Shown one piece after another: positions 3,033-56,051 of a stretch of DNA of 64,000 nucleotides. The notes under the pieces were generated by a model. It had not been told where the DNA came from, made no database searches, and saw only the letters and a program-made list of their open reading frames with translations. Position numbers and translations under genes: made by a program. Within the stretch, counting starts at the first letter, position 1. Each line of letters starts with the position of its first letter. The stretch covers positions 92,185 to 156,184 of the forward strand of contig CAWJQC010000008.1 of NCBI GenBank assembly GCA_963844965.1, written 5' to 3'. Origin of the DNA: an uncultured bacterium. GTDB taxonomy: Bacteria; Patescibacteriota; Minisyncoccia; UBA6257; 2-01-FULL-56-20.

Positions 3033-3926
3033 TCAGTCATGAGAAATCTTATCGGGATTTTGTTGGCCACCGTTGTTTAACTTATAGAAATTTTCAAATA
3101 CTTTGGCGACCAGAATCGGGCCGGTGCCGCCCGGAGTGGGAGTGTAAAACGACAATGACGATAATAATGACGAAGACACATCCAGATCGCCGACCAATTT
3201 GCCTTTTTCCGCGTCGGTCTGCGTCAAGTCCGCGTTTGTCTGCGACGGCGCGGGCGCCGTATCATAGCCGAAATCAATCACGCCCGCGCCGGATTTGAGC
3301 ATTTCCGGTTTTATAAGGCCGGCTTTTCCGACCCCCGTTATTACAAGGTCCGCGTTTTTGAGCAAAGAAAAATCGCTGCCACGATGCAAAAGATGAAGTC
3401 CCTTAACTTTTCTCATTAGCCATGTTGAGATCGGTTTCCCCACAAGCGGGCCGAGGCCGACAATGGCAACGGTGGCAGTTGAAAGTTGAAGGTTGAAAGT
3501 TGAAAGGATTTTTTCAACGACGCCGACAGCCGGCGGCACGACAGGATTCCGGTCAGCGTAGAAGGCACCTAGGGCACGCTCGCCCAAAATGTCAACGTCC
3601 TTCTCGCGCGGAATGACATTCAAGATGTACTGGGCATTCACGTGTTCCGGCAAAGGCAGCTGCACGATCACTCCGCCGCAGGTTTTGTGTTCGGAAATTT
3701 TCTGGACCTCATCGCGCAATTCGTCGTTTTTGATATCGGGCGGAAATTTATACAAACGGAAATCAACGCCGAGCTCTTTAGCCGCTTTTTCCTTTTGTTT
3801 TATGAAACTTGCGGAGCTCAGATCGTCGCCGACCAAAAATACTGCCAAGAATTTTTTTGGCGCTGTCTGGGACTTCAATTTTGTCAAAATCTCCGAAGCG
3901 ATTTTTTTACCATCAATCACAATCAT
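3033..3926 (-). CDS. folD: bifunctional methylenetetrahydrofolate dehydrogenase/cyclohydrolase
   Basis: MIVIDGKKIASEI...VQLPLPEH...VGKPIS signature regions. The ATG at plus 3924-3926 was chosen over the longer track ORF. Confidence 0.85.
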   Translation of the reverse strand: MIVIDGKKIASEILTKLKSQTAPKKFLAVFLVGDDLSSASFIKQKEKAAKELGVDFRLYKFPPDIKNDELRDEVQKISEHKTCGGVIVQLPLPEHVNAQYILNVIPREKDVDILGERALGAFYADRNPVVPPAVGVVEKILSTFNLQLSTATVAIVGLGPLVGKPISTWLMRKVKGLHLLHRGSDFSLLKNADLVITGVGKAGLIKPEMLKSGAGVIDFGYDTAPAPSQTNADLTQTDAEKGKLVGDLDVSSSLLSSLSFYTPTPGGTGPILVAKVFENFYKLNNGGQQNPDKISHD

Positions 3927-4536: not shown

Positions 4537-5776
4537 TCAATGTTTTAATGGGAATTTCCTGCAGAGTTTTTTCACCGCGCCGTTCACATTCCTGTTTTGC
4601 GCCAAAACTTCGTCTATCAGCCGCGCGACCTCCTTCATCTCTTTTTCTTTCATGCCGCGTGTCGTGAGAGACGGCGTGCCGATTCTTATTCCCGACGGGT
4701 CAAAGGGCGGCCTGGTGTCGTAAGGCACCGTATTTCTGTTCACAATAATGCTATTCCGCTCCAGACGATCCTGCGCTTCGCGGCCGGAAATTCCGAAATT
4801 CGTGAGGTCAATAAGCATCAGGTGATTTTCCGTACCGCCAGAGACAAGATTGAAACCACGATGGACGAGTTCACGGGCAAGAGTGCCGGCGTTTTTAACT
4901 ATCTGCCTACCGTACTTTTTGAAGGACGGCTGCATAGCTTCGTAGAGGCACGCAGCGATGGCGGCGGTTTGGTTGTCGTGCGGTCCGCCCTGAAGCGCCG
5001 GGAACACCGCCCTGTCAATTTCCTTGCCGATGTCAATTTTCTTCTTAAGGGCAAGCGGCGATACTCTGATTGGCGAAAATCAGCGCGCCGCGCGGTCCGC
5101 GCAGGGTCTTGTGCGTAGTCGTGGTCACGACATCGGCGTAAGGAAACGGCGAGGGATGCGCACCAGCGGCGACGAGACCGGCAATGTGAGCCACGTCCAC
5201 GAGAAGATAAGCGCCAACCTCGCGGGCTATCTTCCCGAATTTTTTGAAATCAAACTTTCTTGTATAAGCGGTCGCGCCGGCAACGATAATCTGCGGACGC
5301 TCTTTGCGCGCCATTTTTCTCACTACTTCGTAATCAATGAAGCCGTTGCGGTCAACGGAATACTGCGCGGACTTGTAAAATCGCGCGGAAAAATTCACCT
5401 TCCAGCCGTGCGTCAAGTGACCGCCGAAGGGAAGCGACATTCCCATGATTTTTTCTCCCGGCCGGAGCAGGGCGTAATAGACAGCCATATTCGCCGGCGA
5501 ACCGGAATACGGCTGAACGTTCACATGCCAATTTTTACCAAGATGGAAAACTTTCCTTGCCCTCTCCTGCGCCAATAACTCAATCTCATCAATCACCGAA
5601 TTGCCCGCGTAGTATCTCTTACCCGGGTAACCCTCGGAATATTTGTTGGTTAGCGCGGACCCCAGTGCCCCGAGCACTCCGGCCGAAACGATATTCTCCG
5701 AGGGAATCAAGTCCAGAGTGTCGTTCTGACGCCGCGTTTCTTTTTTGATTAAATTTTCCACAATCTTGTCGCGCAT
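4537..5776 (-). CDS. glyA: serine hydroxymethyltransferase, split by a single frameshift near 5045-5075
   Basis: The 5045..5776 ORF matches the SHMT N-terminal two-thirds (…[18 protein letters not shown]). In the adjacent frame the sequence continues …[29 protein letters not shown]… into ORF 4537..5007 (…[16 protein letters not shown]…). Confidence 0.85.
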
Positions 5777-6219: not shown

Positions 6220-6372
6220 AGCAATGCCTCCACTTAGCTAATAATCAAGCTAAAAACTAAGTAGTATGATAATCGCCTTGCGTAAAAATGTCAAGTACGC
6301 CACGAAAGCCAACTGATACCGCGACATAATTGTGATGCGGCATTGGTTTGATGACGGTTCGGACAGCTTCGC

Positions 6373-7100: not shown

Positions 7101-7349
7101 TTAGCCGATAATACCCGCGCCGAAGATCGGCGCCTTGGGATTGCCCAGCCAGACCGCAAGCATGAAGACAGTGAGTAGGATGGCAATAAGCAGAAGCAGC
7201 AAGCTTGTGGTAGCGGAGCCTGTGGTAGTGGGTTCCGACTTCAAAATCGGCATCGGTGGTATACGAAAAGACAAGAAGGCAAAAATGAGGGAAGCCAACA
7301 CTATGATCGCGATGCGCACCAAGATTGACGGGCAAAACAAATCCTCCAT
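7101..7349 (-). CDS. small hydrophobic protein (hypothetical)
   Basis: 82 aa, two predicted TM segments. Preferred over the overlapping plus-strand ORF because a terminator follows it. Confidence 0.3.
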   Translation of the reverse strand: MEDLFCPSILVRIAIIVLASLIFAFLSFRIPPMPILKSEPTTTGSATTSLLLLLIAILLTVFMLAVWLGNPKAPIFGAGIIG

Positions 7350-7416
7350 CGGTCACCTCGCCTACAGAATTCAACCACGGAACTAGTTTGACTATAAAGC
7401 GGTAAGTTGCGTCGTG

Positions 7417-8346
7417 TCAAATGCAACCGCCGAAAGTGAAGGCATACGCCCGCAGTCCACGGTCTTTCGCGAAAATTATGAGCTCGCCGCGCGGGGGAGC
7501 CGCCAACGGTCCGCCACCGAAGTCCTTCGCGTTCGCGAGATTGTACATTTTAGTTTCACTTACCTCCAATTCCTTCAAAAGTTTTCCGTCAAGCTCCACG
7601 CGGACCTTTGCAGCGCGCTCGCCATCCGCTCCCATCACGAGATTAATTTCCATCGCTTCAAAATTGAGCGACAGATAATCAACGAATTCTTCGGTTTTCC
7701 TTTCGTACTCAATATATTCCGGATAAACTTTCCAATCACCGGAGAAATTCCAGGTTTTTCCGGCGCGGCCGCGCATCGTACCGAGATAGGTTTCCGGCGT
7801 GGTTGGATAACAAACCCCGCCTTCGCCCTCCGTGGCCTTGACAACGGAGGGCAACTTCTCCCCCGGGTTAATTTCCGAAAGCGCCTTTCGGATTGCCTCT
7901 TCGGTCTCCGCATAAGCTCCCTCTCCGGCATGCTCGTATACTGCTTGGCCATCTTTATTTATCAAAAATTTATGCGGCCAGGAGTTATTGGAATATAAAC
8001 TCCAAATTTGATAGTCGCTATCCATCACGACAGGATATTCAATTCCGAATTCCTTTATGGCCCTCGCGACGTTTTCAACATTCTTCTCAAATTCAAATTC
8101 TGGAGTATGCACGCCAACGATCACGAGACCGAATTTTGCGTATTTATCGTGCCAGCTTCTTATGTGCGGCAGGGTACGGATGCAGTTCACGCAGGAATAG
8201 GTCCAAAAATCCACAAGCACGACATGCTTGCCGCGCAAATCTTTCATACTAAGGCGCTGTTCGCCGCCCAATCCCCCGCCGCTGGGCAAAAGGCCGGCGG
8301 GTAAGTTGAACCAGCGCAAATTTGGAGGAAACTCCGGTGAATGCAT
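7417..8346 (-). CDS. thioredoxin-fold (redoxin/AhpC-TSA-like) protein with C-terminal extension
   Basis: VVLVDFWTYSCVNC CxxC active-site context, 309 aa. Confidence 0.65.
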   Translation of the reverse strand: MHSPEFPPNLRWFNLPAGLLPSGGGLGGEQRLSMKDLRGKHVVLVDFWTYSCVNCIRTLPHIRSWHDKYAKFGLVIVGVHTPEFEFEKNVENVARAIKEFGIEYPVVMDSDYQIWSLYSNNSWPHKFLINKDGQAVYEHAGEGAYAETEEAIRKALSEINPGEKLPSVVKATEGEGGVCYPTTPETYLGTMRGRAGKTWNFSGDWKVYPEYIEYERKTEEFVDYLSLNFEAMEINLVMGADGERAAKVRVELDGKLLKELEVSETKMYNLANAKDFGGGPLAAPPRGELIIFAKDRGLRAYAFTFGGCI

Positions 8347-8370
8347 TGTTTAAATATTAATTTGAACCGC

Positions 8371-8411
8371 GAAAAAAAACAAACACCCCTGCGCGCTACG
8401 CGTCAGGGGTG
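8371..8411 (-). terminator. Rho-independent terminator overlapping the stop codon
   Basis: CACCCCTGcgcgctacgcgtCAGGGGTG stem followed by TTTGTTTTTTTT on the minus strand. Confidence 0.65.
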
Positions 8412-8912
8412 AAACTTCCTGATGATTCTCACCGAAAAGTCGGCCGCAAAAAATTCCTTGTCCCTCGGGCACTTTTTCCCATATGCCTCGGGGTTGGTTT
8501 GATAATCCACGATGTGGCCGACTTCATGGAACAAATCGCCCACCGTCGCGTCCTCCTGAAGGATAATCTCATTAGTGTCGGGCCAGCAGAACGATGTGCT
8601 TGATTCTTCAATGCCAACGCGGTAGCAGAGATACAGGTACGGCCGTAAAAATGTCTTTCGCATGTCCTTCGGCAGAATATAAACGCGCGGGACATCCAGG
8701 TTGCCAAGGCCGGCGCGCGTCAAACCACCGTGAGCGATAAATTCCTTCGTGCTGTCGCGACGCAAGAGAAAACCCGGATTGGAAATAATGCTGAAGCCGA
8801 CAGTGACGTAAAAAAAGGCAAAGATTATGCACGCGTAGACCGGACCGCGAAACAAATCGGGCAGCGGCTTGGCCAAAAAATCAAACCAGAGCCAGCGCAG
8901 GGATTTTTTCAT
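8403..8912 (-). CDS. membrane-anchored putative Zn-metallopeptidase (HExxH)
   Basis: 169 aa, N-terminal TM segment, HEVGH motif. Confidence 0.5.
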   Translation of the reverse strand: MKKSLRWLWFDFLAKPLPDLFRGPVYACIIFAFFYVTVGFSIISNPGFLLRRDSTKEFIAHGGLTRAGLGNLDVPRVYILPKDMRKTFLRPYLYLCYRVGIEESSTSFCWPDTNEIILQEDATVGDLFHEVGHIVDYQTNPEAYGKKCPRDKEFFAADFSVRIIRKFHP

Positions 8913-9087
8913 GAACCACCTCGGTTTATATGTCCTCAGGATCCTATTCTTAGATTACCACTATTTGAAACAAAATCTACCGCACGGCTCCATGGTCCGT
9001 GCCTGTATATCACATGGCAGATACTGCGCAAAAATCAAAAATCTTGTACAATACAGGTCAGCAACTATAAAAACAAGGAGGTGTTTC

Positions 9088-9417
9088 GTGGCGGAGGAAA
9101 AAAATAATAAGCAGAAACTCGCTGCTATCATCGCGTATGTAAGAAAACGGCGGAGGGAATCCAGAATAAAAATCGGCGTACCCCAGCCGCAAACCTCATG
9201 CTGGGGCGGTGGCATAGGAGAATTCGGCAATCTTGTTGAACTTAGTTTACCGTACAGACACGAAGAAGAATGGGATGAGCTCAAGGACCAGGAAACCCTT
9301 GACGGCGTACACCGGTATGTTTCCTATAAACCGCCAAAAAAACCAGAAAAAATGAAGGGAGCCGCAATTAGCGGCCCTTTTTATTTTTTTTGGAGGTGCC
9401 TCACCCGAGGACGTTAG
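9088..9417 (+). CDS. hypothetical small protein (GTG start; 3' end uncertain, ORF runs through a terminator hairpin)
   Basis: Sigma70-like promoter TTGTAC-16-TATAAA (9044-9071) and RBS AAGGAGG precede GTG 9088. The longer track ORF 8869.. was rejected. Confidence 0.35.
   Translation: MAEEKNNKQKLAAIIAYVRKRRRESRIKIGVPQPQTSCWGGGIGEFGNLVELSLPYRHEEEWDELKDQETLDGVHRYVSYKPPKKPEKMKGAAISGPFYFFWRCLTRGR
9361..9391 (+). terminator. Rho-independent terminator
   Basis: GCCGCaattaGCGGC then CCTTTTTATTTTTTTT. Confidence 0.6.
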
Positions 9418-9421
9418 AACC
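9395..9421 (+). repeat. E1 repeat copy a (GGTGCCTCACCCGAGGACGTTAGAACC), immediately 3' of a terminator
   Basis: One of four related ~27-nt copies at 9395, 10364, 11375 and 11685. Confidence 0.7.
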
Positions 9422-9456
9422 TGTTTTACAGAAATGGCCAGCAAATTGTGAGTCCG

Positions 9457-9480
9457 GCAGGTTCGAATCCTGTAGGGGTG
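9457..9480 (+). other. tRNA 3'-end-like fragment (T-arm GCAGG-TTCGAAT-CCTGT plus 3' acceptor strand), no matching 5' half
   Basis: Canonical T-loop TTCGAAT in a 5-bp stem followed by AGGGGTG. No complementary CACCCCT acceptor 5' strand was found upstream. Confidence 0.45.
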
Positions 9481-9497
9481 TCTGCTCCAGAACTGTG

Positions 9498-9533
9498 TTT
9501 GAGAGGAAAAACGATACGACGTATATATTCCGG
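9498..9533 (+). promoter_or_regulatory. E2 repeat copy a: conserved sigma70-like promoter (TTGAGA-17-TATATA)
   Basis: tttgagaggaaaaacgatacgacgtatatattccgg, near-identical to 10739-10775. Lies upstream of ORF 9657 with a ~120-nt structured leader. Confidence 0.55.
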
Positions 9534-9656
9534 GCCTAGGGCCAACCAACGAGTCGGCTGCCCGTCCTTGACGATTACCAGCTCCTTGTGCTTTCATCTA
9601 AATGGCTGGCGAGCCGCAAGCGAGCCAGACTACTTGACAAAGGAGGAAGTGGCCCA

Positions 9657-9950
9657 ATGAGAAACGGGAAACTTCTGCAAATTCCAGGTACTGAACTTTG
9701 GAACGGTTTGGAGGCTCTGCAGGTGGGGGGTGTCACGCCCAACCTGTGGCAGCGTCTCCGCTTAGATCTTTATTTTAGACGATATGCTGTCGAGATGATG
9801 GTCCAAGAGAACATACGCCACCCCGGCCTTTCCGAAGCGGTGGAAGGTTTCCATTACGACACCCCTCGCTCCAAACTCGCTAACGGACTTCGGGAAAGGG
9901 GTTTCTATGTTGTGAAAGGTGAGATACGTAGAGGCCCTCGAGCCACATAG
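9657..9950 (+). CDS. hypothetical protein (GC-rich cassette ORF 1)
   Basis: RBS AAGGAGG 8 nt upstream of ATG 9657; 97 aa. Confidence 0.45.
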   Translation: MRNGKLLQIPGTELWNGLEALQVGGVTPNLWQRLRLDLYFRRYAVEMMVQENIRHPGLSEAVEGFHYDTPRSKLANGLRERGFYVVKGEIRRGPRAT

Positions 9951-9969
9951 CACGTGGCCAGTACACGCA

Positions 9970-10287
9970 ATGGACATCGTTTTCTACCCAATACAGCCAT
10001 TCCGCGCTCTTAATCAGGAAGAGGCCAGAGCTGAGCTCGACGAACGCAAGGTCCGTCCTGCTTACACCGAGGAATTTCTGCGTTTTTGCATGACCAAGCT
10101 TGCATTGGATACCACCTGTAGCCGACAAATCGGCGGGGTGGTAGCTCTGAATGCCTACCGAGATGATTGCGGAGTTCGCGAATATCTTTGTCTGGATCGC
10201 CGCCTTGACGGCAATCCGGCATTGGGTTTCTGGCACCCCGAGCCGACTTTCCCTGGGACGTGGGCGTTTCTGGGAGTCAGGCCATAG
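9970..10287 (+). CDS. hypothetical protein (GC-rich cassette ORF 2; alternative GTG start 9919)
   Basis: 105-122 aa. A strong terminator follows directly. Confidence 0.4.
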   Translation: MDIVFYPIQPFRALNQEEARAELDERKVRPAYTEEFLRFCMTKLALDTTCSRQIGGVVALNAYRDDCGVREYLCLDRRLDGNPALGFWHPEPTFPGTWAFLGVRP

Positions 10288-10318
10288 GTTCAATCTTGCA
10301 GATCGAGCAACTGCTCGT

Positions 10319-10349
10319 CGCCACGACAAAAAAATCGTGGCGCTTTTTT
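10319..10349 (+). terminator. Rho-independent terminator
   Basis: GCCACGAcaaaaaaaTCGTGGC then GCTTTTTTA. Confidence 0.7.
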
Positions 10350-10363
10350 ACGAAAAACACCAG

Positions 10364-10390
10364 GGTGCCTCACTAAAGGACGTCAGAACC
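10364..10390 (+). repeat. E1 repeat copy b (GGTGCCTCACTAAAGGACGTCAGAACC)
   Basis: Follows a terminator, as in copy a. Confidence 0.7.
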
Positions 10391-10493
10391 AGAATAATCG
10401 GGGCGTTACTGAAAAATCGGTATATTTACATACCGGATTTAACTTTGCCAATAACTGCGAGGTAAAGGAATCTATCAGATTTGATAAGCTTCT

Positions 10494-10682
10494 TTACTTT
10501 CCGGCCTTGTCTAAAATCTTTGAACCTATGTTTATTGAACCGACCAAGACAACACCCGCCAGAATTGCATAAATAAGAGAAAATCCTATCGTATCAATCA
10601 AGTATAACGAGAACATAAAAGAAATGCAGACGATTATAATAGCCGGAATCCAAATCAACAAGTAGCCGAGGAGTTTTTTCAT
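10494..10682 (-). CDS. small two-TM membrane peptide (hypothetical)
   Basis: 62 aa, strongly hydrophobic. Confidence 0.35.
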   Translation of the reverse strand: MKKLLGYLLIWIPAIIIVCISFMFSLYLIDTIGFSLIYAILAGVVLVGSINIGSKILDKAGK

Positions 10683-10738
10683 AGATTTATTTTACCTTAT
10701 TTTACCCCACCCCACCACTCACCGTATCTCCAGGCATA

Positions 10739-10775
10739 TTTGAGCGGAAAAACGATATGACGATATATATTCCGG
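10739..10775 (+). promoter_or_regulatory. E2 repeat copy b: conserved promoter (TTGAGC-18-TATATA)
   Basis: tttgagcggaaaaacgatatgacgatatatattccgg. Lies upstream of ORF 10912. Confidence 0.55.
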
Positions 10776-10911
10776 ATGTAAAATCGCAAAATATTCCAGG
10801 CCATAGGCAGTATCGACAATTTTTCTCATCTGTTATATAAGGGATATAGGCCCGCCAGCAAGTATGCGGCGGATGAGGCAGTTTACATCATAAAACAAGG
10901 AGGCGAACGCA

Positions 10912-11316
10912 ATGCGACGATTTGGATTTCTGGCACTCTTTTTGGGAATGACCATTCTGGGGACGTCTGCGCTGGCGGGATCCGCCAAAGACGGCGAATA
11001 TGTTCTTGAAAAAAATCAAATACAACCCATGGGTGAAGATAAGAGCTGCGGTCCATATTTTATCCTGACCACATATGGCGGGCGTTCTGCGGAGAGGATT
11101 GTCTTTCATTTCGTTGACGATGATGGAAAGATTCAGGCCGACGCAATCAAGATTTCGATGGTTTCGGTCGTCGGCGACAAAGACAAAAAAGTCCCAACCG
11201 TTCAGTTCGAAAAAAACGAGGACGAGAGGACAATGATTTTGCGAATTAGCCCGGAGGACAGGCAAGAGGCAACCTGCCTTAAAGCCAAGAGCGACGATAC
11301 CAAAGGAGGCCGCTGA
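10912..11316 (+). CDS. secreted hypothetical protein (signal peptide)
   Basis: RBS AAGGAGG; N-terminal MRRFGFLALFLGMTILGTSALAGSA signal-peptide-like segment; 134 aa. Confidence 0.5.
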   Translation: MRRFGFLALFLGMTILGTSALAGSAKDGEYVLEKNQIQPMGEDKSCGPYFILTTYGGRSAERIVFHFVDDDGKIQADAIKISMVSVVGDKDKKVPTVQFEKNEDERTMILRISPEDRQEATCLKAKSDDTKGGR

Positions 11317-11340
11317 ATCTAAACGGCCCCTTTTTCTTTT
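11308..11340 (+). terminator. Rho-independent terminator overlapping the stop codon
   Basis: GGCCGctgaatctaaaCGGCC then CCTTTTTCTTTT. Confidence 0.6.
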
Positions 11341-11374
11341 CTCGACGCCCTAAAAATATCAACATTTTTCGCCG

Positions 11375-11401
11375 GGTGCCTCACTTGAGGATGTTATTGT
11401 T
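11375..11401 (+). repeat. E1 repeat copy c (GGTGCCTCACTTGAGGATGTTATTGTT)
   Basis: Follows a terminator. Confidence 0.6.
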
Positions 11402-11515
11402 TCGAAAAGAAAAAACCGCCTCGGAAAACCAAGACGGTCGATGCACGTTTCCAGTACATTGGCTTGAGTGAACGGACGGCGAGGGGTATAATGAAGTTAC
11501 TAAAGAAGAAATAGC

Positions 11516-11617
11516 ATGGCTCATCGCGGAGGCAAGAGAACGAAAAATAAGAGGAACCGAAAAGCACGGCGAAAGTTTAATAGTCGGGTTATTTTCCCGT
11601 CAGAAAGAAGGAGATGA
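11516..11617 (+). CDS. very basic 33-aa peptide (MAHRGGKRTKNKRNRKARRKF...), speculative
   Basis: Short ORF not in the track; no strong RBS. Confidence 0.15.
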   Translation: MAHRGGKRTKNKRNRKARRKFNSRVIFPSERRR

Positions 11618-11684
11618 TATCGTGGGCAGTCCGGTCGCGCCGACATGGTAGCCGTATCTGTCCCTCGATAATAAAAATACTTGG

Positions 11685-11711
11685 GGTGCCTTGTTGGATG
11701 TGTTTAGAACC
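11685..11711 (+). repeat. E1 repeat copy d (GGTGCCTTGTTGGATGTGTTTAGAACC; 3-nt deletion variant)
   Basis: Shares the GGTGCC…GTTTAGAACC ends. Confidence 0.5.
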
Positions 11712-11764
11712 GTGAATTGGAATGAATTACGGGAAGGTATGGCGAATTTAAGCTTTGTGGGCGG

Positions 11765-12181
11765 TTAATAAACCCAGATTCCAATAGCAAGCAGGATAAT
11801 CCGCACGAGCATAAAGGCAATTAAGTGGAGCATATAAAATATACCCTTTTCGAACATATCAATGCCCCAAATTTTGAAACAGATAAGAATGACGGCGGAG
11901 TGGACGATAAGGTAAGAGAAACTGCCAATTATCCGGTTGACAGATGGAGGAAGGCCGTTGGATTGGCGCATCCTTCCGAAAGTCATTGCGGTAAAAACGA
12001 CAGAAACCAACACGAGGAAGATACCGATTACGATCGTTGGGATGAGGGGTGAAATAAACGATTGCCACAATTGCACGAAAGGCGCATCAAGGGCGTTAAA
12101 TATCGGCTGGAGCATTTGGGTCGCCGAGGCGACAGCGCTGGAGGAATACACTGGGAAGATAACCGGCGGTGTAGATGTCAT
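11765..12181 (-). CDS. hypothetical integral membrane protein
   Basis: 138 aa, 4 hydrophobic segments. Confidence 0.45.
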   Translation of the reverse strand: MTSTPPVIFPVYSSSAVASATQMLQPIFNALDAPFVQLWQSFISPLIPTIVIGIFLVLVSVVFTAMTFGRMRQSNGLPPSVNRIIGSFSYLIVHSAVILICFKIWGIDMFEKGIFYMLHLIAFMLVRIILLAIGIWVY

Positions 12182-12246
12182 CCCAGCAACATACAGCAGT
12201 TATGGCGGGCTGGTCAATTGGTGGCCGCGGGTTATATAATATCTTT

Positions 12247-13482
12247 AATGAAAATCGAGAGCCAAAAACTCAACGTAACCGAGGCGTTTAAAAACTTCTA
12301 TTACATCGTCCCGCCGTATCAGCGGGAGTATGTTTGGAAGGAGAGAAACGTTGCCCAGTTATTTAACGATATTTACGACGAATATACCAACGATAAAAAC
12401 TCCGAATACTTTATCGGCAGTATCGTCGTAAATAAGCGTGAGGATGGCACATACGAAGTGATCGACGGCCAACAGCGATTAACCACTTTATTTATTAGTC
12501 TTTGTGCGCTTAAACGTGTGTTCAAAAATTCCCAAGATCATTTAAGCGTTATAGAAAATCTGCTCACTTCCCCGACGACGAACGATAAAGGCGAAATCAT
12601 CCGCAGCTCCCATCTTGAACTGCAATATGAAGGCACAGCAGACATTTTACGCGATATTTTGAATGACAAGGAATTAAGCAAAAAAACGTCTGGTTCGGCA
12701 GAACACATCAAAGAAGCCCTCGAAACCATCCTCGAATACCTGAACGCAAACTTCAAAACAGAAAATGACCGAACGCGGTTTTATGGATATTTTATGCACA
12801 AGGTAAATTTTGTGCAGATTGAAACGCCGAGCGTGAGCGACGCTTTGAAAATTTTTGAAACGATCAATGAGCGCGGCGTTGGCCTGAATCCGATGGATTT
12901 GCTCAAAAATTTGATATTTCAGCAATTGCCACGCGACGAGTTTCAAAAGGTTAATGTCGAATGGAAGAAAATAACGAGGACGTTGGAAAAGAATGGGCAG
13001 AAGCCACTCCGCTTTTTACGCTACTTCATAATGGCCAACTATCAGGTCAAGGATACTAAAGACGTCGAGGTTGTGCGTGAGGACGAGATTTACGACTGGG
13101 TGGTAAGACACGCCGAGGTTTGCGGCTATAGGAAAGATCCATTCGGGTTTGTGGGAAAAATCGCCACAGATGCCGAAGCCTACGTTTCATTTTTCAACGG
13201 TATGACGCTGGAGGGCAAGAATAGCGTCGAATTGGAAAACATCAGGAGCTTGGGCGGCGGTGCATTCAGCCAACATTTAGTTATGCTGCTTGCGGCCAAA
13301 GAGTTGCCCGAAGACCTTTTTCTTCATCTCGTTCGACAGGTGGAAAGCTTATCTTTTACTACTTCATTACGAAAACTCCCGCGAAAGCACTGGAAGCCCG
13401 TTTTTCCCGATGGGCGGATGATTTGCGTGATGTAGCGGGCGATGCAGATCAAAAAGCCGCCCTCAATAAATTCATAATGTAA
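12247..13482 (+). CDS. DUF262 (ParB-like nuclease / GmrSD-BrxU N-terminal domain) protein, frameshifted near 13345 and ending inside the IS3 terminal repeat
   Basis: N-terminal YYIVPPYQREYVWK…VIDGQQRLTTLF is the DUF262 signature (DGQQR). The alternate frame after ~13350 reads …LIFYYFITKTPAKALEARFSRWADDLRDVAGDADQKAALNKFIM*. No DUF1524/HNH-like C-terminal domain is present. Confidence 0.7.
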
Positions 13483-13534
13483 AGGATAGGTTTCTTTAGA
13501 CAGTGATTCGACGGCTTTTTGCCGTTTTTTTTCG

Positions 13535-14317
13535 TTAAGCCGCAATCTTCTCGGCAAACACGGACGGCGGCATCTTGAGGGCGGAGTGGATCCGCGTGTG
13601 GTTGTACTGCCACAAGGTGCTGTAGATCTCCGCCACGAGCTCGCCGAAGGTCCCGAACCGGTTGGGATCACCGAGGTCAATCTTGAACTTGTCATAGAAC
13701 GATTCCTGGTAGCCGTTTTCCCATGGGGCACCGGGCCGCGACCGCGAGATCGTGATGCCACAGTCCCCCAGTGTATCGGTGAACGCTCGTGCCTTGTACT
13801 CGCTGCCGTTGTCCGAATGGAAGATGACCGGATGCGGATGGTGGAAAAGCGCGTTGGCCAGGGTCTGTATCGTGAGGGGCGATCCTTTCCGCAACGCCAC
13901 ATGGACGCCCATCAATCGTCTCGTGAAAAGATCGAGTATCGTGGACACGTACACTTTCTTGCCGCGATACAGGAACTCCGTGAAATCGGTTGCCCAGACG
14001 TGGTTCGCGTACGAGGGCATGATGGCAAGTAAGAGGTTCGGAAAGGCCCGCGATGCCTTTGATTTCCGGTATTTCCTGCCTCGCCTCCGGTACGGCCTTA
14101 TGCCGAAGATTCGCATGACGCGCTGCGCTCGCGGACGGCTCACGCCCAGAGCTTGTCCCAAGCGCCGGGAACCGTATGCCGGATGGCGCTGCAATTCTTC
14201 TTCCATGCGGATCTTGAGCGCCCAATCTTTCTTGTCCTGCCGTGATACGTAGTAGAGCGATGCCCGCGAGACGCCCATGGCCCGCGCCATGGCGGACTTG
14301 TTCCGCTTTTCCGTCAA
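13535..14317 (-). CDS. IS3-family transposase OrfB (DDE integrase core, rve domain), expressed as OrfAB fusion by -1 frameshift
   Basis: HSDNGSEYKARAF…ITISRSRPGAPWENGYQESF (DDE/rve). The -1 frame from the CCAAAAAAAG heptamer gives KELTEKRNKSAMARA, which continues OrfB. Confidence 0.8.
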   Translation of the reverse strand: MTEKRNKSAMARAMGVSRASLYYVSRQDKKDWALKIRMEEELQRHPAYGSRRLGQALGVSRPRAQRVMRIFGIRPYRRRGRKYRKSKASRAFPNLLLAIMPSYANHVWATDFTEFLYRGKKVYVSTILDLFTRRLMGVHVALRKGSPLTIQTLANALFHHPHPVIFHSDNGSEYKARAFTDTLGDCGITISRSRPGAPWENGYQESFYDKFKIDLGDPNRFGTFGELVAEIYSTLWQYNHTRIHSALKMPPSVFAEKIAA

Positions 14318-17957: not shown

Positions 17958-18082
17958 CATGAATCCCGTTAGAAGCCACGGTCGCGTTGCGGAAAACACC
18001 TATCGGGATAAAAATAAGGATTGCGAATTATAAATATAACCATCAGCAGGCGCCGACCGCGACCTGCTTCTAACGGGATGAA
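17958..18082 (+). mobile_element. MITE-like element copy 3 (TIR TCCCGTTAGAAG / CTTCTAACGGG; 5-bp direct repeat ATGAA) between infC stop and rpmI start
   Basis: ATGAA-TCCCGTTAGAAG…(92 nt)…CTTCTAACGGG-ATGAA. The right ATG is the rpmI start codon. Confidence 0.6.
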
Positions 18083-18245
18083 AAAAAGTGTTTCCAAAAG
18101 AATCAGAATCACGAGGAACGGCAAAATGATGCGGCGGCCGATGGCCACCGATCATTTTCGCACGCGCCACACGCAAAAAAATATAAGGCGTAAATCAAAA
18201 ACGCTCGGAGTTGACTATCCGAGGAAAAAAATCGTAAACTACTAA
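18078..18245 (+). CDS. rpmI: 50S ribosomal protein L35
   Basis: MKKSVSKRIRITRNGKMMRRPMATDHFRTRHTQKNIRRKSK… is basic and L35-like. Sits in the infC-rpmI-rplT order. Confidence 0.75.
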   Translation: MKKSVSKRIRITRNGKMMRRPMATDHFRTRHTQKNIRRKSKTLGVDYPRKKIVNY

Positions 18246-21281: not shown

Positions 21282-21923
21282 CTATGGCAAAGTAATTCGC
21301 GGAGGCGACGATTTTCTCTCCATCCTCGAACCATCCAATTTCGGAAAAAGCATGAGAAGAAGTGAGGATGCGATCAAATTTAGAATTGCCGCCACGGCAA
21401 AAGTCGTTCTAAAGCCATAAGCATCGGCAATTATCCCGCCAATCGCGCCGCCGACGGCAGTGGAAACGGTCAGACCGAAAACGCTGAATATGCTCCACTC
21501 AACACCCTCGGAAACCTTGTCAACGTGATGCGCGAAGATCGTATAGTAAGCAGCCATAAGACAAGCATCGCCGACCCCGCAGACGGCTTCCATTACGTAT
21601 AACTGCCAGGTAAACTTTATGAACATTAAGGTTAAGGGATAAACAACGCCTATCGCGCAGCCCAAAAGCATCACGCGGAAATCGTCTTTTTCCCCGGATT
21701 TTCTGTCTATTCTTCTCGCAATCGGTATCTGGAGAATTGATTTCACTATCGCGTAGATGGCGATCGCGAAACCAGCCGTTCTTAGGCTCGCCCCGACGAG
21801 CGTGCCCGTGATGAAAACCGCGAAAAGCGGCGCGAAAAGTCCGCCGCTCGCGTTCAGGATAAACAGGAAAAAAAGCAGGAGTTCAATTACCCTATTTATG
21901 GAAATGTTCAGTTTTATTCTCAT
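21282..21923 (-). CDS. MFS-type transporter-like membrane protein (6 TM; possibly a half-size or truncated MFS)
   Basis: Hydrophobic 6-helix pattern. Start ATG (plus cat 21921-21923) lies inside the MITE-like repeat; the track N-terminal extension RPISNGM comes from that repeat. Confidence 0.45.
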   Translation of the reverse strand: MRIKLNISINRVIELLLFFLFILNASGGLFAPLFAVFITGTLVGASLRTAGFAIAIYAIVKSILQIPIARRIDRKSGEKDDFRVMLLGCAIGVVYPLTLMFIKFTWQLYVMEAVCGVGDACLMAAYYTIFAHHVDKVSEGVEWSIFSVFGLTVSTAVGGAIGGIIADAYGFRTTFAVAAILNLIASSLLLMLFPKLDGSRMERKSSPPRITLP

Positions 21924-22054
21924 CCCGTTAGAAATAGGGCGCAACGCCGCCGCTCGTCCTCTTTATTATTTAATATTCGGCCATTTTGTTGATGTAATAT
22001 CCGCAAAGCGTCCGCGCCTGCCTGCCGGCAGGCAGGATTTCTAACGGGACCCAT
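21919..22054 (-). mobile_element. MITE-like element copy 1 (TIR TCCCGTTAGAAAT; flanks ATGGG/ATGAG) between the clpB-like stop and the MFS start
   Basis: On the minus strand: ATGGG-TCCCGTTAGAAAT…ATTTCTAACGGG-ATGAG. Contains the 20-bp palindrome at 22017-22036. Confidence 0.6.
22017..22036. repeat. perfect 20-bp palindrome CCTGCCTGCCGGCAGGCAGG (copy 1 of 3)
   Basis: Identical at 31099-31118 and 38023-38042. Confidence 0.9.
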
Positions 22055-30854: not shown

Positions 30855-31134
30855 TGAACTACCGCCGCTTAAGAGCGGTGGTATTAGAACTGCCACGCCT
30901 CGCACGCAACCAGATTTTACATCACTTAGCATGCGGTAGTTCACCCCGCCCCCACTTTTACTTATGACACTTGCGATTCTTTTTCCGTGTTGATGGCACA
31001 AACCTATACATTTTTCTCCTGACGTTTTAAGTAAAAGTGAGGCGGGGTTTATGTTTTCCATTCCGCAATCCTGCCCCGCTCTACTGGCGGGGGGGTATTC
31101 CTGCCTGCCGGCAGGCAGGCTTGCGGGGAAAACA
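30855..31134. repeat. hairpin-dense noncoding block: three consecutive long imperfect stem-loops plus the 20-bp palindrome (candidate structured RNA or degenerate MITEs)
   Basis: Inverted-repeat pairs: 30855-30864 with 30932-30941; 30943-30960 with 31030-31046; 31050-31067 with 31120-31134. Inner hairpins at 30859-30880 and 31072-31092. Palindrome at 31099-31118. The 30849..31142 track ORF is probably spurious. Confidence 0.5.
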
Positions 31135-37364: not shown

Positions 37365-38155
37365 TTAGGACAAAAATAAGATGACCTTCCGCCAATTTTT
37401 ATTTTCTTTATTTTAGCACAGCACCGAAAACATTTCTCACCCTCGCGATCATAGACCTTACGGGAATCCTGGTAATAACCCGAACTGCCGTCGGTCCGGC
37501 GGTAATCACGCAGCGTAAAACCGCCCTTTTTGATGGCTTCGCGGAGAATTTCCTTGATTGAACGCACCAAACGCACGATTTCCCGACTCTTTAGCGCGCC
37601 ACTCCGTCGCATTGGGTGGATTTTGGCTGTCCATAGGCTCTCATCCGCGTAAATATTGCCCAATCCGGCGACGAGCCGCTGGTCAAGTAGTGCCGATTTT
37701 ATCAGCTTTTTCCTGCCATACAGCAATTCACCCAGCTTTTTAGCATTAAAATCCTTTGAAAGCGGCTCTACTCCCGGTTGCGGAAGCGATTGCGCATCGG
37801 TTTGCCACTCAATCGTGCCGAAACGCCGGGCGTCAACGAACCGCAAAACCGAACCGTCGGAAAAATAAAATCTCGCCCGTTCGTGCGGCATCCTTTCCGG
37901 GCCTAGCCGCATTTGCCCGGTCATGCGGAGGTGGATAATGCAACGTAAACCATTCTCAAAGCTAAGGATTATAAATTTCCCGCGGCGGCGCACAGAAACG
38001 ATTTCCAGCGGCAAAACAAAGCCCTGCCTGCCGGCAGGCAGGCGCGGCTTCCCGATTTTCTTCACGTCAAAAACCGCAAACTTAATCAATTTTTTGCCGA
38101 CCAAGATGTGCGAGAGCTCGCGCGTTATGGTCTCAACTTCCGGAAGTTCGGGCAT
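37346..38155 (-). CDS. mutM: formamidopyrimidine-DNA glycosylase (Fpg/MutM); carries the 20-bp palindrome in-frame (…KPRLPAGRQGF…)
   Basis: MPELPEVE N-terminus (Pro2 active site) and a C-terminal zinc finger (CFRCCAKI…CPKC). Confidence 0.85.
   Translation of the reverse strand: MPELPEVETITRELSHILVGKKLIKFAVFDVKKIGKPRLPAGRQGFVLPLEIVSVRRRGKFIILSFENGLRCIIHLRMTGQMRLGPERMPHERARFYFSDGSVLRFVDARRFGTIEWQTDAQSLPQPGVEPLSKDFNAKKLGELLYGRKKLIKSALLDQRLVAGLGNIYADESLWTAKIHPMRRSGALKSREIVRLVRSIKEILREAIKKGGFTLRDYRRTDGSSGYYQDSRKVYDREGEKCFRCCAKIKKIKIGGRSSYFCPKCQKEK
38023..38042. repeat. perfect 20-bp palindrome CCTGCCTGCCGGCAGGCAGG (copy 3, inside the fpg coding region)
   Basis: Identical to 22017-22036 and 31099-31118. 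Confidence 0.9.
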
Positions 38156-42635: not shown

Positions 42636-43097
42636 CTAAAATCTGATTGTTCTCTCGTTCTCTTTTGCACCGTGCGAGAAATAAATCCAAGTGGAGTTCT
42701 CGGGTAAAATCCTTTTAATATTGTCGGCCCATTCTATAAGAACTATGTTTTTGGAATCGGCAAAAATCTCTTTCAGCCCGAGCGCTGGAAGTTCGCACGG
42801 CTTTTTGATGCGGTAAGCATCAACGTGATGTAAATTTTCAATTTTCAATTTACAATTTTCAATTTTGAAACGGCGCATAATGATAAACGTTGGACTCGTT
42901 GTTTTTTTGCGAATTCCGAGACCGCGCAGAAAACCCTGAATAAAGGTGGTCTTCCCGCTGCCTAGGTCGCCTGCAAGCGCAAAAACAAGCGCACCACGCA
43001 GTTTGGAAATTGAAAATTGAAAATTGAAAATTCTCTTGGCAAGTTCACTGCCAAGGTTCTTCGTCTCTCGCGAAGAAAAGCTTTGATAGGTTTTCAT
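42636..43097 (-). CDS. tsaE: tRNA threonylcarbamoyladenosine biosynthesis protein TsaE (contains two in-frame inverted heptamer-repeat insertions)
   Basis: GDLGSGKTTF P-loop and …SPTF… motif. Confidence 0.75.
   Translation of the reverse strand: MKTYQSFSSRETKNLGSELAKRIFNFQFSISKLRGALVFALAGDLGSGKTTFIQGFLRGLGIRKKTTSPTFIIMRRFKIENCKLKIENLHHVDAYRIKKPCELPALGLKEIFADSKNIVLIEWADNIKRILPENSTWIYFSHGAKENERTIRF
42833..42867. repeat. heptamer array (AATTTTC)x5 inside tsaE
   Basis: aattttcaattttcaatttacaattttcaatttt; inverted relative to the 43006-43033 array. Confidence 0.8.
43006..43033. repeat. heptamer array (GAAAATT)x4 inside tsaE, the inverted partner of 42833-42867
   Basis: gaaattgaaaattgaaaattgaaaattc. 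Confidence 0.8.
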
Positions 43098-45670: not shown

Positions 45671-47363
45671 TTAATCTGTCTGCTGTTTCCACTCTATCCT
45701 GCCGGTAACCGACTCCACTTCGTCAAAACTCGTTAAACCCTGAAGGACCTTCAGAATTCCGTCGGCTTGCATGCTCACCATTTCCTGGGAGTCCGCGAAT
45801 TTTTTCAGGGCCACCTCCGATGCCTCTTTCAGTATCACTTCTTCCAAGGCAATGCCTCCCTCCAAAAATTCGTACACTCCCACGCGGCCGCGGTAGCCGA
45901 GGCCGCTGCATTTCGCGCAACCGACTGGTTCGTAAACATTTATTTTCTCATATGCGGCCTGGTTCACCCGTTTCGGTAAATTATCCAAAAATTTTTGTAT
46001 CTTGGCTCGGAAGCCACCGTCCAACGCTTTCGCCTTCTTGCATTCGGCACAAAGGCGCCGCACGAGACGCTGGGCGATAATCAAATTGAGCGCCGGCCCG
46101 ATACTCACGGCTTTCACGCCCAAATTTATCAGGCGTGGGACGGCACCGACGGCATCATTCGTGTGAAGCGTTGAGAGGACCAGGTGGCCGGTAAGCGAGG
46201 CTTGAAGCGCAATATCCGCAGTATCCAAATCCCTGATCTCACCTACGAGAATTATGTCCGGGTCCTGACGCACGACCGCCCGCAACCCCTTCGCGAACGT
46301 ATAGCCGGCCTCGGAATCAACCTGCGTCTGTTCTATGCCCGGAATCCTGTACTCTATTGGATCTTCAAGGGTTATTATTTTTATTTCGGGGCTGTTAACC
46401 CTCTTCAAAAACGCGTAAAGGGTGGTGGTTTTCCCGGAGCCGGTGGGACCAGTGTTTAAAATAAGGCCGTTGGGCTTTTCTATTTGGCGATTTACAATAA
46501 CGAGGATCGTCTTCCCTTATGCCCAGCCCGCCGAGGTCAATCGCGATAACATCCGGGTCCAGGATCCGCAGGACAATGGTCTCGCCGAATTCCGCCGGTA
46601 TAACCGAGGCGCGAATTTCTATTTCCTTTTGCCCGAAACCTATCGTGAACCGACCGTCCTGTGACTCGCCTTTTATATTTATCTTCATTCCGGAGAGAAG
46701 CTTGAGGCGCGAAACCAAGGACTCGTAATTCTTAAGCGGCAACTCCTCGAAAATATCGTGCAACAAGCCGTCAACTCTGTAGCGCATGCGCGCGTTTTTC
46801 TCCCCGGCCTCAAAATGTATGTCGGACGCCTTAAGACCCATGGCGCCGGCCAGGACAACCTCGATAAGAGTGACCGGGGTCGTCTTTGTAAAATCCAATT
46901 TTCCTATTTCGCTTTTTACCGCGGAGAAATTAACGAGTATCGCGGAGAGTTCTTCAAGCCGCTTTTTTTCGATTTTCACCTTGCCGGTAATCTCTTCCGC
47001 CTCCGGTTTGACAAATTTATAAAAGCGCCAGGCGTCGCCGAGTCCCGAAAGTGACGTGACGAACGTTTTTACCTCGTATTTTTTATTTTCCAGGTCTTTG
47101 ATAATTTTTTGCACCGCGGGCGCGCGGGGATCGGCGGCGGCTAAAGCCACTCTCCTGACCTTGACCTCAATCGTTGCGACCCTCGCGCCGCGCGCCACAT
47201 CTTCCAGAACAAGTTTTAACGCGTCCGTGGAAACGGGGGTCTTGGATAAATCCACATAAGGAAACCCTGCGTCACTAGCCAAACGTTGCGCCGCCCGCTC
47301 CTCGCCTTCGCGGTGGAGAACGGTAAGTTTACTTTGCAGAACGGATGGCTTTTGAGGATCCAT
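45671..47363 (-). CDS. GspE/PilB-family secretion ATPase (type II/IV pilus assembly), split by one frameshift near 46500
   Basis: N-terminal GspII_E_N-like domain (…DAGFPYVDL…). The alternate frame supplies NTGPTGSGKTTTLYAFLKRVNSPE (Walker A). The C-part has the tetracysteine motif CAECKK…CAKC. Start ATG (plus cat 47361-47363) is inside MITE-like copy 2. Confidence 0.8.
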
Positions 47364-47483
47364 CCCGTTAGAAATAGGACGCGGATAAAGCCACCGCGCC
47401 ATTTTTAATTTTTTGTAGTGCTCTGACCATTTACAATGATTCTTCTATTTTGCAACGCATCCGCAATTTCTAACGGGATCCAT
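47359..47483 (-). mobile_element. MITE-like element copy 2 (TIR ATCCCGTTAGAAAT; perfect 5-bp direct repeat TCCAT/ATGGA) at the gspE/pilB start codon
   Basis: On the minus strand: ATGGA-TCCCGTTAGAAAT…ATTTCTAACGGG-ATGGA. Confidence 0.65.
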
Positions 47484-53251: not shown

Positions 53252-53266
53252 CCGATTCTAAATTCG

Positions 53267-54380
53267 TCAACTGTTCGCTATGGGTTTCAGAATATAAAGA
53301 TACGAATTATCGTTGGGTGATTTTATAAGAGCTGGTTCGCTGTCGCTTGTGATCCCCAAAAATACTTCTTCCGCTTTCAGGATTTTAATAACGTCGGCCA
53401 AATATCTCCAGTTAAAAATAGTTTTATTTGGTTTTCCTTGAATTTTCGCCGGCAACAGATATTTATTCTCACCAATAACCTGGTCAGACGATTCAACCTC
53501 TAGGACTTTTTTATTTTCCTGGATATTAAGGGTTGTCTCGCTGCTCCTTGTCCCAAAAATGCCGGCTAACTTCAGAGCTTCGGTAAATTCCTGTTTATTG
53601 ATTATGATTTCCGCGCCGAACTTTCTGGGTATTATCGCATTATAATCGGGGAAGTTTCCTTCGATCAGGCGCGAAAGGAATTCTAATTGCTCGGTTTTAA
53701 ATAATATTTGATTACTATCGTGGTAAATCCTGACGATATTCATTATTATTCAGGATTCTTATAAGTTCTTGAGTTGTTTTTAAAGGAATAAGAACTCTGA
53801 AATTTTCCTTGGAATTAGCGGTAAATTCTGAAGAGTTTATTGTCTTCTCAGCTAATCTAAAGCTGTCGGTTGCGGCTAATTTAATATTATTCACCGAAAA
53901 TTCAAACAAAACACTATTTAACTCCGGTCTCAAATCGGAGAATTGAGAGGCGACAAGTACTTGATTAAGTGCTTCTCTGAATATTTCTGTTTTTATTTCT
54001 ATATATTCTTCGTTATTTTTTATCTTCGGAGTTATAGGAAAATCATCAGCCGCAAGACCGTGGACCGAAGCGTTATAATTATCGGTTTTTATTTCCAATT
54101 TATTTCCCCTTTTTTCTATATTTAATCTTTCGCTTTGAATATTATTTATCAGATTATAAATCACACTTATCGGCACGGTGAACTTTCCGTTTTCAATAAT
54201 TTTGCCTGATATATTACAACTTATTGCAATTTCTAAATTAGTAGTTGTTAGTCTTATTTTATTATTCTCAACCTCAAAGAGAACGTTTTTTAATATCGGC
54301 AAATTCAGATTGTCTCCGGCTCCTCGTTCGGTCACCGCAAGGCCGTCCTTTAGGTTTGTTTTAATAACTATAAATTTCAT
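53267..54380 (-). CDS. dnaN: DNA polymerase III beta sliding clamp, split by a frameshift near 53715-53745
   Basis: N-terminal MKFIVIKTNLKDGLAVTERGAG… is typical of DnaN. The C-part is in ORF 53267..53743. Confidence 0.8.
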
Positions 54381-54501
54381 TTATTTATATTAATACTTAT
54401 TGTTGTAGTTATTTTTATTATTATACTGTTAGTTGTGTGAATAAGTAAATAAACTTTAATTTACAGTTTCAATTTTTAATTTCTTTTTTGTTCATATCTT
54501 G

Positions 54502-55863: not shown

Positions 55864-56051
55864 GAAAATTTTGTTAATTCGTTTAGAAAGTTTATACCAC
55901 CAAACCCACAACAAAACAATATCAGTCTAATTCTATTTTTAATTCCGTTGTAATTGAAGAGCTTGGATATCACAATTTGGGGATTAACTGTTAATAACTT
56001 TTTTAATATATATACTACCACGGTTAATGACAATTCAAAAATAGTATGTTA
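55864..56051. promoter_or_regulatory. putative oriC / dnaA-rpmH divergent control region (AT-rich, DnaA-box-like 9-mers)
   Basis: ATATCACAA and TTATCCTAA(rc)-like boxes. Conserved rpmH-rnpA-yidC-jag / dnaA-dnaN synteny. Confidence 0.4.

Follow-up and report, generated by a model that had tools for sequence, protein, structure and literature searches.

A probable decayed array of cassette insertions at a tRNA-His 3' end, bounded by the coding end of a large serine recombinase, in an uncultured Patescibacteria genome

Main finding

We analyzed a 64-kb stretch of contig CAWJQC010000008.1 from an uncultured bacterium of the Patescibacteriota (hereafter the window, meaning the whole stretch, to which all + and - strands refer), concentrating on the small open reading frames (ORFs) that lie between position 9392 and a membrane protein gene at 11765. 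A preliminary description of this interval had proposed a cassette-like accessory island organized by two repeat families, E1 and E2. We consider it likely that a tRNA-His gene was the target of integrative elements or cassettes relying on a large serine recombinase (LSR), and that their insertions at its 3' end left the array now seen, in decayed form, in the interval. E1 and E2 are the two halves of one unit of ~70 nt, which in its reading frame encodes the last ~24 codons (GAVVEDVRTVFERKNDATIYIP) of an LSR gene. Judged from the sequences compared here, copies of this unit mark the edges of small inserted cassettes, both in the window and in dozens of related uncultured (Patescibacteria) genomes.

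E1 and E2 as halves of one unit

A repeat finder run on the window returned E1 as a 27-nt family with four copies at 9395, 10364, 11375, and 11685, all on the + strand and with 100, 85, 70, and 67% identity to the first (copies a, b, c, and d). E2 has two copies only, at 9498 and 10739, with zero expected. The places given earlier for both repeats are thus borne out, with a and b as strong copies of E1, c 70% identical to a, and d weak. A degenerate E1 27-mer matched copies a and b against zero expected, and no further copy of E1 or E2 was found elsewhere within the 64 kb. Exact-pattern E1 scans of species genomes, metagenomes, and viral contigs gave no match, the pattern being too strict.

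A profile of the unit was then built from 65 distinct metagenome copies only, and the entire window was searched with nhmmer, all filters off. The five top window matches of this external profile are E2a, E2b, E1a, E1b, and E1c. The units and their parts are as follows:

9392-9427, + strand: left half of unit a (E1a), starting with GGTGCCTCAC, the remainder encoding ..EDVRT of the recombinase tail; profile rank 3 at 9396-9427, profile positions 8-39, E-value = 0.048
9428-9488, + strand: insert of 61 nt that splits unit a, with an imperfect 12-nt flanking repeat (AGAACCTGTTTT / AGAACTGTGTTT)
9489-9534, + strand: right half of unit a (E2a), encoding FERKNDTT(I)YI.. with a 1-nt deletion; profile rank 1 at 9489-9530, profile positions 28-70, E-value = 2.6e-8
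10362-10440, + strand: unit b, E1b plus a decayed right half recognized from sequence and alignment, with in-frame GASLKDVRTRIIGALLKNRYIYIPDL; profile rank 4 at 10362-10390, profile positions 5-33, E-value = 0.25
10737-10775, + strand: unit b2, E2b, right half only, encoding FERKNDMTIYIPD, the left half missing or unrecognizable; profile rank 2 at 10737-10772, profile positions 35-70, E-value = 7.7e-7
11372-11411, + strand: unit c, E1c plus the decayed beginning of a right half (nhmmer); profile rank 5, profile positions 4-47, E-value = 0.42
11682-11713, + strand: E1d, a weak and doubtful member with 67% identity to E1a; profile rank 12, E-value = 7.8

The profile thus assigns E1 to positions 4-39 (up to 47), the left half of a single unit, and E2 to positions 28-70, its right half, and the two families proposed at first become one. 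The same can be seen at the related locus L005, where the two halves are contiguous: read in window orientation, a terminator is followed by GGTGCCATCGTGGAGGACGTTGGGATT (E1-like), 4 nt, TTTGAGAGGTTGAACGATGCGACGATATATATTCCGG (E2-like), an adh_short gene with its terminator, and tRNA-His. In the window a decayed E2 stands directly after E1b and after E1c, and profile positions 28-39 are found on either side of the 61-nt insert of unit a. The nucleotide consensus of the unit family is TGGGGTGCCGTCGTAGAGGATGTTAGAACTGTGTTTGAGAGGAAAAATGATGCGACTATCTACATTCC. Terminator-like hairpins do lie upstream of E1a, E1b, and E1c, as had been reported, but E1 is not a terminator-associated element; it merely comes after the end of the preceding cassette.

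The unit as the C-terminal tail of a large serine recombinase

One reading frame of the unit follows the pattern GA(S/I)xxDV..FERxNDxTIYIPD. A peptide alignment of the copies was used for retrieval and returned 69 metagenome loci. An intact gene is found in L015 and its identical counterpart L012: a 561-aa ORF that carries Resolvase, Recombinase, and Zn_ribbon_recom domains and has the unit as its C-terminus. By NCBIfam, and below the cut-offs, this recombinase is XisF/Ccr-like; phage serine integrases share 21-27% identity with it, but all of them lack the unit tail. Unit b2 of the window matches its residues 543-564 (tblastn, E-value = 8e-4). In 47 of 97 copies homology to the LSR starts abruptly at W533/G534 (TGG GGT). 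A small number of copies, L045 among them, retain decayed upstream codons before the core (in L045, ARIELKTTL vs. HRIELDKTL of the recombinase). Nearly all copies lie in stop-to-stop frames of 23-117 codons, most of them below 70, with nothing conserved upstream, and five copies have an in-frame TAG.

Outside the retrieval pattern, entropy among the copies is 0.70, 0.38, and 0.97 at the three codon positions. Single-base codon differences outside the ten retrieval codons are synonymous in 58% of cases vs. 25% expected, and the Arg codon of DVRT varies between AGA, CGA, and AGG. Unit peptides had no match in Pfam, and neither unit DNA nor peptide was present in IMG/VR, GenBank phages, or PLSDB plasmids. 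An early idea, that the peptide was box II of a tyrosine recombinase or a helix-turn-helix, was ousted by the full serine recombinase ORF of L015.

The only intact recombinase of the family belongs to an island beside tRNA-Ala (L015, 1300-8025). A tyrosine-integrase-like ORF (by inspection) lies upstream of the recombinase in this island, and a frameshifted DUF262-type gene (by motif) follows it. The window array also adjoins a DUF262-type defense gene; similarity between the two proteins was not detectable.

The tRNA-His slot

The host side of the array was compared with its relatives. A Logan contig (L001), which is a second assembly of nearly the same strain, matches 7132-13507 at 99.9%; the two assemblies are set apart by three indels, within E1a at 9402-9404, at 9926, and at 10236. 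The thioredoxin-like gene at 7417-8346 has relatives with 63-73% identity in metagenome-assembled genomes (MAGs) of Patescibacteria/Paceibacteria, and in six loci (L002, L003, L005, L007, L008, and L009) a tRNA-His(GTG) is located near it on the same strand, which corresponds to the minus strand of the window. Between this gene and the first unit lies the left flank of the array:

9088-9417, + strand: ORF 9088, host-side flank of the array, with a hairpin terminator at 9361-9375 and then a T run

Homologues of ORF 9088 occupy the syntenic place in L005 (63%), L006 (47%), and L003 (34%), and by this conservation it is evidently a real chromosomal gene. The homologues end in or beside the terminator hairpin; because they stop there, the frame beyond the hairpin, into E1a, is probably not genuine coding sequence. 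In L003 the 3' end of tRNA-His comes 31 nt after the terminator of the ORF 9088 homologue. Together with the layout of the other relatives, this means that the window from 9395 onward fills the slot of the relatives' tRNA-His, which upholds as a core idea the earlier proposal of an integrase-type insertion next to a tRNA.

The gene content past the ORF 9088 homologue is different in each relative examined. L003 proceeds directly to tRNA-His. L005 has a LemA/TPM operon, a 204-aa gene, and the adh_short gene before its tRNA-His, and L006 has genes of 474 and 207 aa and then a 68% homologue of the 134-aa protein of the window. In L003, ~6320-6350 in minus-strand view, the ORF 9088 homologue and its terminator are followed by GGGTGCCCGACGGG..CCAGTATCGCAC and only then by the functional tRNA-His, whose acceptor is GGAGACAT. 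The intervening sequence looks like the deleted remnant of a second, GGTGCC-type tRNA-His, and L003 therefore seems to have been rearranged at tRNA-His as well.

The left edge of the unit is itself derived from tRNA-His. The L005 tRNA-His reads GGGTGCCTCACGGG... in window orientation, where its 3' end is GGGTGCCTCACGGGAATCGAACCC; GGTGCCTCAC at the start of E1a corresponds to this end in reverse complement. On the strength of this match, the first 10 nt of E1 represent the reverse complement of the discriminator base, the 3' strand of the acceptor, and two T-stem bases. E1 had no match to tRNA models.

A different tRNA piece had been described at 9457-9480, as a T-arm and acceptor fragment left by integration. 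The T-arm-like GGTTCGAATCC is indeed present at 9460-9470, but as a truncated tRNA it scores only 13.3 bits (E-value = 1.1, 48-nt search), and neither ARAGORN nor full-length Rfam models gave a tRNA at 9457-9480. The fragment lies within the 61-nt insert of unit a and is not the att-derived sequence; what derives from the tRNA is the initial ~10 nt of E1. No second copy of the insert was present in any locus examined, and ARAGORN and Rfam found no RNA gene in 8800-11900, whether at gathering thresholds or with E-values up to 10.

Orphan units and arrays in related loci

Orphan units, which have no recombinase body, form same-strand arrays that face a tRNA 3' end in ~70 loci, with unrelated small genes between them. 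Within each locus all units are on one strand (93 of 93), and several loci hold two to four units, 0.5-3.4 kb apart. Where a tRNA is in range, it is located downstream on the opposite strand with its 3' end towards the array; 12 loci have tRNA-His there, three have tRNA-Glu, and two a tRNA-Arg/tRNA-Phe pair. The left edge of a unit tracks the target tRNA, being a tRNA-His end in the window and a tRNA-Glu end in L051, where GTAGCCCGTAG is identical to the neighboring tRNA-Glu at its 3' end before the sequence changes to TGGAGGATGTTAGAAC. The genes between units are unrelated and on either strand (L044, L024), and include a methyltransferase-like gene, a HicA/HicB-like pair, and secreted proteins (by inspection), as well as adh_short (Pfam). 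The preliminary view of an accessory array of independently acquired cassettes is upheld by these loci, in which the same module bounds unrelated genes.

One locus, L029, contains a 104-nt direct repeat with 95% identity (1387-1489 and 3096-3199), which corresponds to the tRNA-His 3' flank plus the core and includes the apparent tRNA-His terminator. Its two copies stand before an orphan unit and before the intact tRNA-His, respectively, and enclose a 1.6-kb cassette.

Of 88 units (L010-L078), 28 also have a motif, TACCC(C/T)A(C/T)CC, located 20-40 nt past the unit end and thus behind the recombinase stop codon; it is strand-biased, with 71 plus-strand vs. 12 minus-strand occurrences. In the window it is found as TACCCCACCC at 10703-10712, upstream of E2b by 34 nt, and not after a unit.

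Cassette cargo and right-hand context

The units of the window would bound ~4-5 cassettes, whose cargo would consist of a gene of 209 aa, a membrane peptide of 62 aa, a secreted protein of 134 aa, and perhaps further genes. These features and those to the right of the array are as follows:

9657-10287, + strand: cassette 1 cargo, gene of ~209 aa, GC 0.54, with a frameshift near 9926 and a terminator at 10319-10342
10494-10682, - strand: cassette 2 cargo, hydrophobic ORF of 62 aa, GC 0.365
10912-11316, + strand: cassette 3 cargo, protein of 134 aa with a signal-peptide-like N-terminus, GC 0.489
11464-11617, + strand: promoter-like site at 11464-11492 (10 of 12 matches) and putative basic ORF of 33 aa at 11516-11617
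11765-12181, - strand: right-hand context, membrane protein of 138 aa
12062-13435, + strand: right-hand context, GmrSD/DUF262-type defense gene, covering profile positions 3-370 of 554 only
13535-14317, - strand: transposase ORF with integrase-core (rve) domains, IS3-like by inspection, 100 nt from the end of the defense gene

The locally raised GC reported for cassette 1 holds, with 0.54 vs. a window mean of 0.486, which places it in the top 5% of equal-sized windows. Its two ORFs, 9657 and 9970, had been taken as a pair; they belong to one ~209-aa gene frameshifted near 9926, and a 207-aa homologue (P0127) aligns end to end with their joint product at 61% identity. The extra base near 9926 is missing from L001, which itself has an extra base at 10236, and the two indels are either assembly errors or segregating frameshifts. 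The 134-aa protein has the 68% identical homologue in L006 mentioned above. Upstream of its gene, GACAATTTT..GTTATATAAGGGATA at ~10816-10848 is conserved in L006, where no E2 exists, and is read as the putative promoter of the gene. None of the small or cargo ORFs matched a family in Pfam, NCBIfam, or PADLOC. For the 134-aa protein and ORF 9970, AlphaFold modeling from single sequences reached a predicted local distance difference test (pLDDT) of 40-45. As for the defense gene, its profile match stops at 370 of 554 positions and the transposase ORF adjoins it, so that an insertion sequence (IS) has probably truncated it.

Interpretation and alternative explanations

Decayed LSR insertion at tRNA-His would work as follows. 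The attachment core would be part of the recombinase gene itself, ~24 codons upstream of its stop, and would mimic the reverse complement of the tRNA 3' end (TGG-G-GTGCC). Because such a core is both within the 3' coding end of the LSR and similar to the tRNA end, recombination with the tRNA would leave at the host flank a scar composed of the tRNA end and the last ~24 LSR codons, which is E1 plus E2. Serial insertion would build a same-strand array of scars with cargo between them. E1a, since it abuts the native flank at the terminator of ORF 9088, would be the attL-type junction (host flank, core, and element arm), and the remaining units would be inner junctions. The identity of the unit, its LSR origin, its tRNA-derived left edge, the synteny, and the arrays in many genomes are shown by the sequences; from these we infer that an LSR catalyzed the insertions and where the crossover fell. 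The window array itself is probably an inactive relic, considering that neither an LSR nor a tRNA-His is found in the 64 kb, that three units are degenerate, and that one is split by an insert.

Several observations speak against this explanation. The tRNA-His that should have been the target is missing from the 64-kb window, and tblastn found no LSR or LSR fragment there; apart from the transposase ORF with rve domains at 13535-14317, neither a serine nor a tyrosine recombinase (one tyrosine-integrase query) was found in the window. Two parts of the array, E1d and the left half of b2, can hardly be recognized, and the dyad score at the core (10 of 22) is no better than background. Retrieval of the metagenome copies by a peptide pattern inflates the coding signal within its 10 codons. 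Among the ~70 loci, with ±6 kb of flank, there is one intact LSR lineage only, orphan units outnumber intact recombinase genes by ~65 to 1, and none of the loci has the N-terminal part of an LSR beside tRNA-His, as expected for an attR. No orphan keeps more than ~32 upstream codons, where random deletion of a 1.6-kb gene predicts otherwise. Finally, the direct repeat of L029 fits homologous (Campbell-type) recombination as well as it does site-specific recombination.

Two of these points, the ~65-to-1 excess of orphan units and the limit of ~32 upstream codons that random deletion would not produce, favor an active integron-like or SCC-like system, which we regard as unlikely. Here the orphan units would be functional att sites of non-autonomous cassettes, which a serine recombinase encoded elsewhere would capture, excise, and reshuffle in trans, and the unit would stay coding-competent as it can complete the recombinase frame. 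It is also in favor of such a system that the members of the L044 array differ mostly by synonymous changes and that cassettes measure only 0.5-2 kb and in many cases carry one or two genes. Nevertheless, no recombinase gene heads any array examined, several copies carry in-frame stops or indels, and the copies of the window are degenerate. A previously undescribed cassette-capture system of Patescibacteria, in which recombinase-less cassettes with an LSR-tail attachment module are moved in trans into arrays at tRNA 3' ends (mainly tRNA-His), is for us a doubtful proposition; if true, bacteria regarded as poor in mobile elements would possess a counterpart of integrons built on a serine recombinase.

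The preliminary description had a model of its own, in which cassettes were expressed from E2, taken as a portable promoter of the sigma-70 type, and E1 was a boundary element of its own, associated with terminators. E2 does contain TTGAGA and TATATA spaced by 17-18 nt, it is located 120-140 nt upstream of the co-directional ORFs 9657 and 10912 and also upstream of adh_short in L005, and no better promoter is evident for ORF 9657. Yet E2 evolves like the coding DNA of an LSR tail, cargo lies on the opposite strand in L044 and L024, the stretch upstream of the 134-aa gene is kept in L006 without E2, and a promoter scan did not flag E2a. A dedicated cassette promoter is improbable on these grounds, E2 being coding sequence of a recombinase C-terminus. 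Least probable of all, and very unlikely, is that the unit has a product of its own, namely a peptide gene of ~25-35 aa or a small structured RNA conserved beside tRNA-His. Strong conservation of ~70 nt over diverged genomes, and an ATG, CTG, or TTG directly before GGTGCC in some copies, could be explained in this way. Opposed to it are the lack of a consistent start codon or ribosome-binding site, the TAG in five copies, the absence of Rfam matches and of Pfam matches to the unit peptides, and substitutions that are of coding type with no base-pair covariation pattern. The fold of 9392-9492 is no stabler than its shuffles (z = -0.85), and a structured RNA at this place was dropped.

The proposed insertion of LSR-using elements at tRNA-His points to serine integrases that are aimed at tRNA 3' ends and have their attachment core in their own coding sequence. 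Such a layout would alter the integrase C-terminus upon integration, a possible switch of activity or direction, and integrases of this type, with a defined natural target, could serve as genome-engineering tools. In addition, the ~70-nt profile may be used as a marker of insertion hot spots and variable cassettes beside tRNA genes in apparently related uncultured bacteria, where accessory gene flow is poorly understood.

Other features of the window

Three copies of a sequence resembling a miniature inverted-repeat transposable element (MITE), ~110-130 nt long, were observed at 17959-18087, 21914-22046, and 47361-47483. They have terminal inverted repeats ATCCCGTTAGAA and poorly conserved interiors, and an 8-mer alone is common with E1a. 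The core link between E1 and these repeats that had been put forward is a coincidence of this 8-mer, CGTTAGAA, as E1b has CGTCAGAA and the family consensus GATGTTAGAAC. On the minus strand glyA (serine hydroxymethyltransferase, 4537-5776) is split into ORFs 5045-5776 and 4537-5007; along with the indels relative to L001, this suggests frameshift errors in the assembly of the window, or else real pseudogenes. Three intergenic sites (22012-22047, 31099-31122, and 38023-38047) have the same perfect GC-rich palindrome, CCTGCCTGCCGGCAGGCAGG. An 83-nt direct repeat with 99% identity (59238-59320 and 59376-59458, 138 nt apart) lies inside a coding region. AT-rich repeats of the AATTTTCAATTTT type are found at 42833-43033, with an inverted pair of 30-36 nt ~120-150 nt apart, and the region 53000-56000, with a low GC of 0.31-0.42 vs. 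0.486 for the window, may be a foreign segment.

Comparison with known systems

Integrons, MITEs, and structured RNAs do not account for the array. An integron was rejected because the window has no tyrosine recombinase (tblastn, one tyrosine-integrase query) and the units no inverted-repeat structure, and a MITE or IS element because the units have no inverted ends and share only an 8-mer with the MITE-like repeats. With regard to an element carrying its own LSR, the window has scars only, and an LSR contiguous with the unit is found only in L015/L012. Hybrid att junctions are present: E1a joins the host terminator flank, a tRNA-His 3'-end core, and the LSR tail, and L051 has the equivalent with tRNA-Glu. 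Displaced copies of a tRNA end (GGTGCCTCAC) are likewise present in a window that has no tRNA-His, while L005 and 12 metagenome loci show the full arrangement. The literature searched, the coverage of which was incomplete, contained no account of a family of serine recombinases that combines such a tail, target, and scar arrays.

Integrons and CALINs (clusters of attC sites lacking integron-integrases) are similar in their one-orientation arrays of small cassettes, in the single recombination-site module of each cassette, and in the lack of a nearby recombinase from many arrays. Here, in contrast, there is neither an IntI-type tyrosine recombinase nor an attC-type imperfect palindrome, and the module is coding-derived and lies at the tRNA-distal side of each cassette. 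The staphylococcal cassette chromosome (SCC) is inserted at the 3' end of rlmH by the large serine recombinases CcrAB or CcrC. SCC composite islands share with our array an LSR, tandem cassettes bounded by direct repeats in which a gene's 3' end is included, and many cassettes without a recombinase. They differ in that the repeated gene end is here the recombinase's own plus a tRNA end, and not that of a host gene such as rlmH; moreover, the lineage is Patescibacteria, and matches to CcrA/B/C models are weak and far below cut-offs.

In SSV1-type archaeal virus integrases and in the integration-dependent immunity of mycobacteriophages, attP lies inside a phage ORF; both are tyrosine-recombinase systems. 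A core inside the element's own frame, a tRNA target, and an integration that parts the C-terminal codons from the gene are features common with the arrangement proposed here. The split state, with the N-terminal part of the recombinase fused to the tRNA, would be its counterpart in our loci, where it is deduced and not observed. Islands at tRNA or tmRNA 3' ends (Islander/TIGER-type) have the same kind of target, a copied tRNA end at the far boundary, and same-strand repeat arrays with unrelated cargo. According to PMC4383910, such islands are usually made by tyrosine integrases. In our case the enzyme would be an LSR, the repeat is ~10 nt of tRNA plus ~60 nt of recombinase coding end, and most cassettes have no integrase. 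On this comparison, the system resembles tRNA-targeted islands, SCC-type composites, and elements with attP in their own frame, the window itself holding their decayed scars only.

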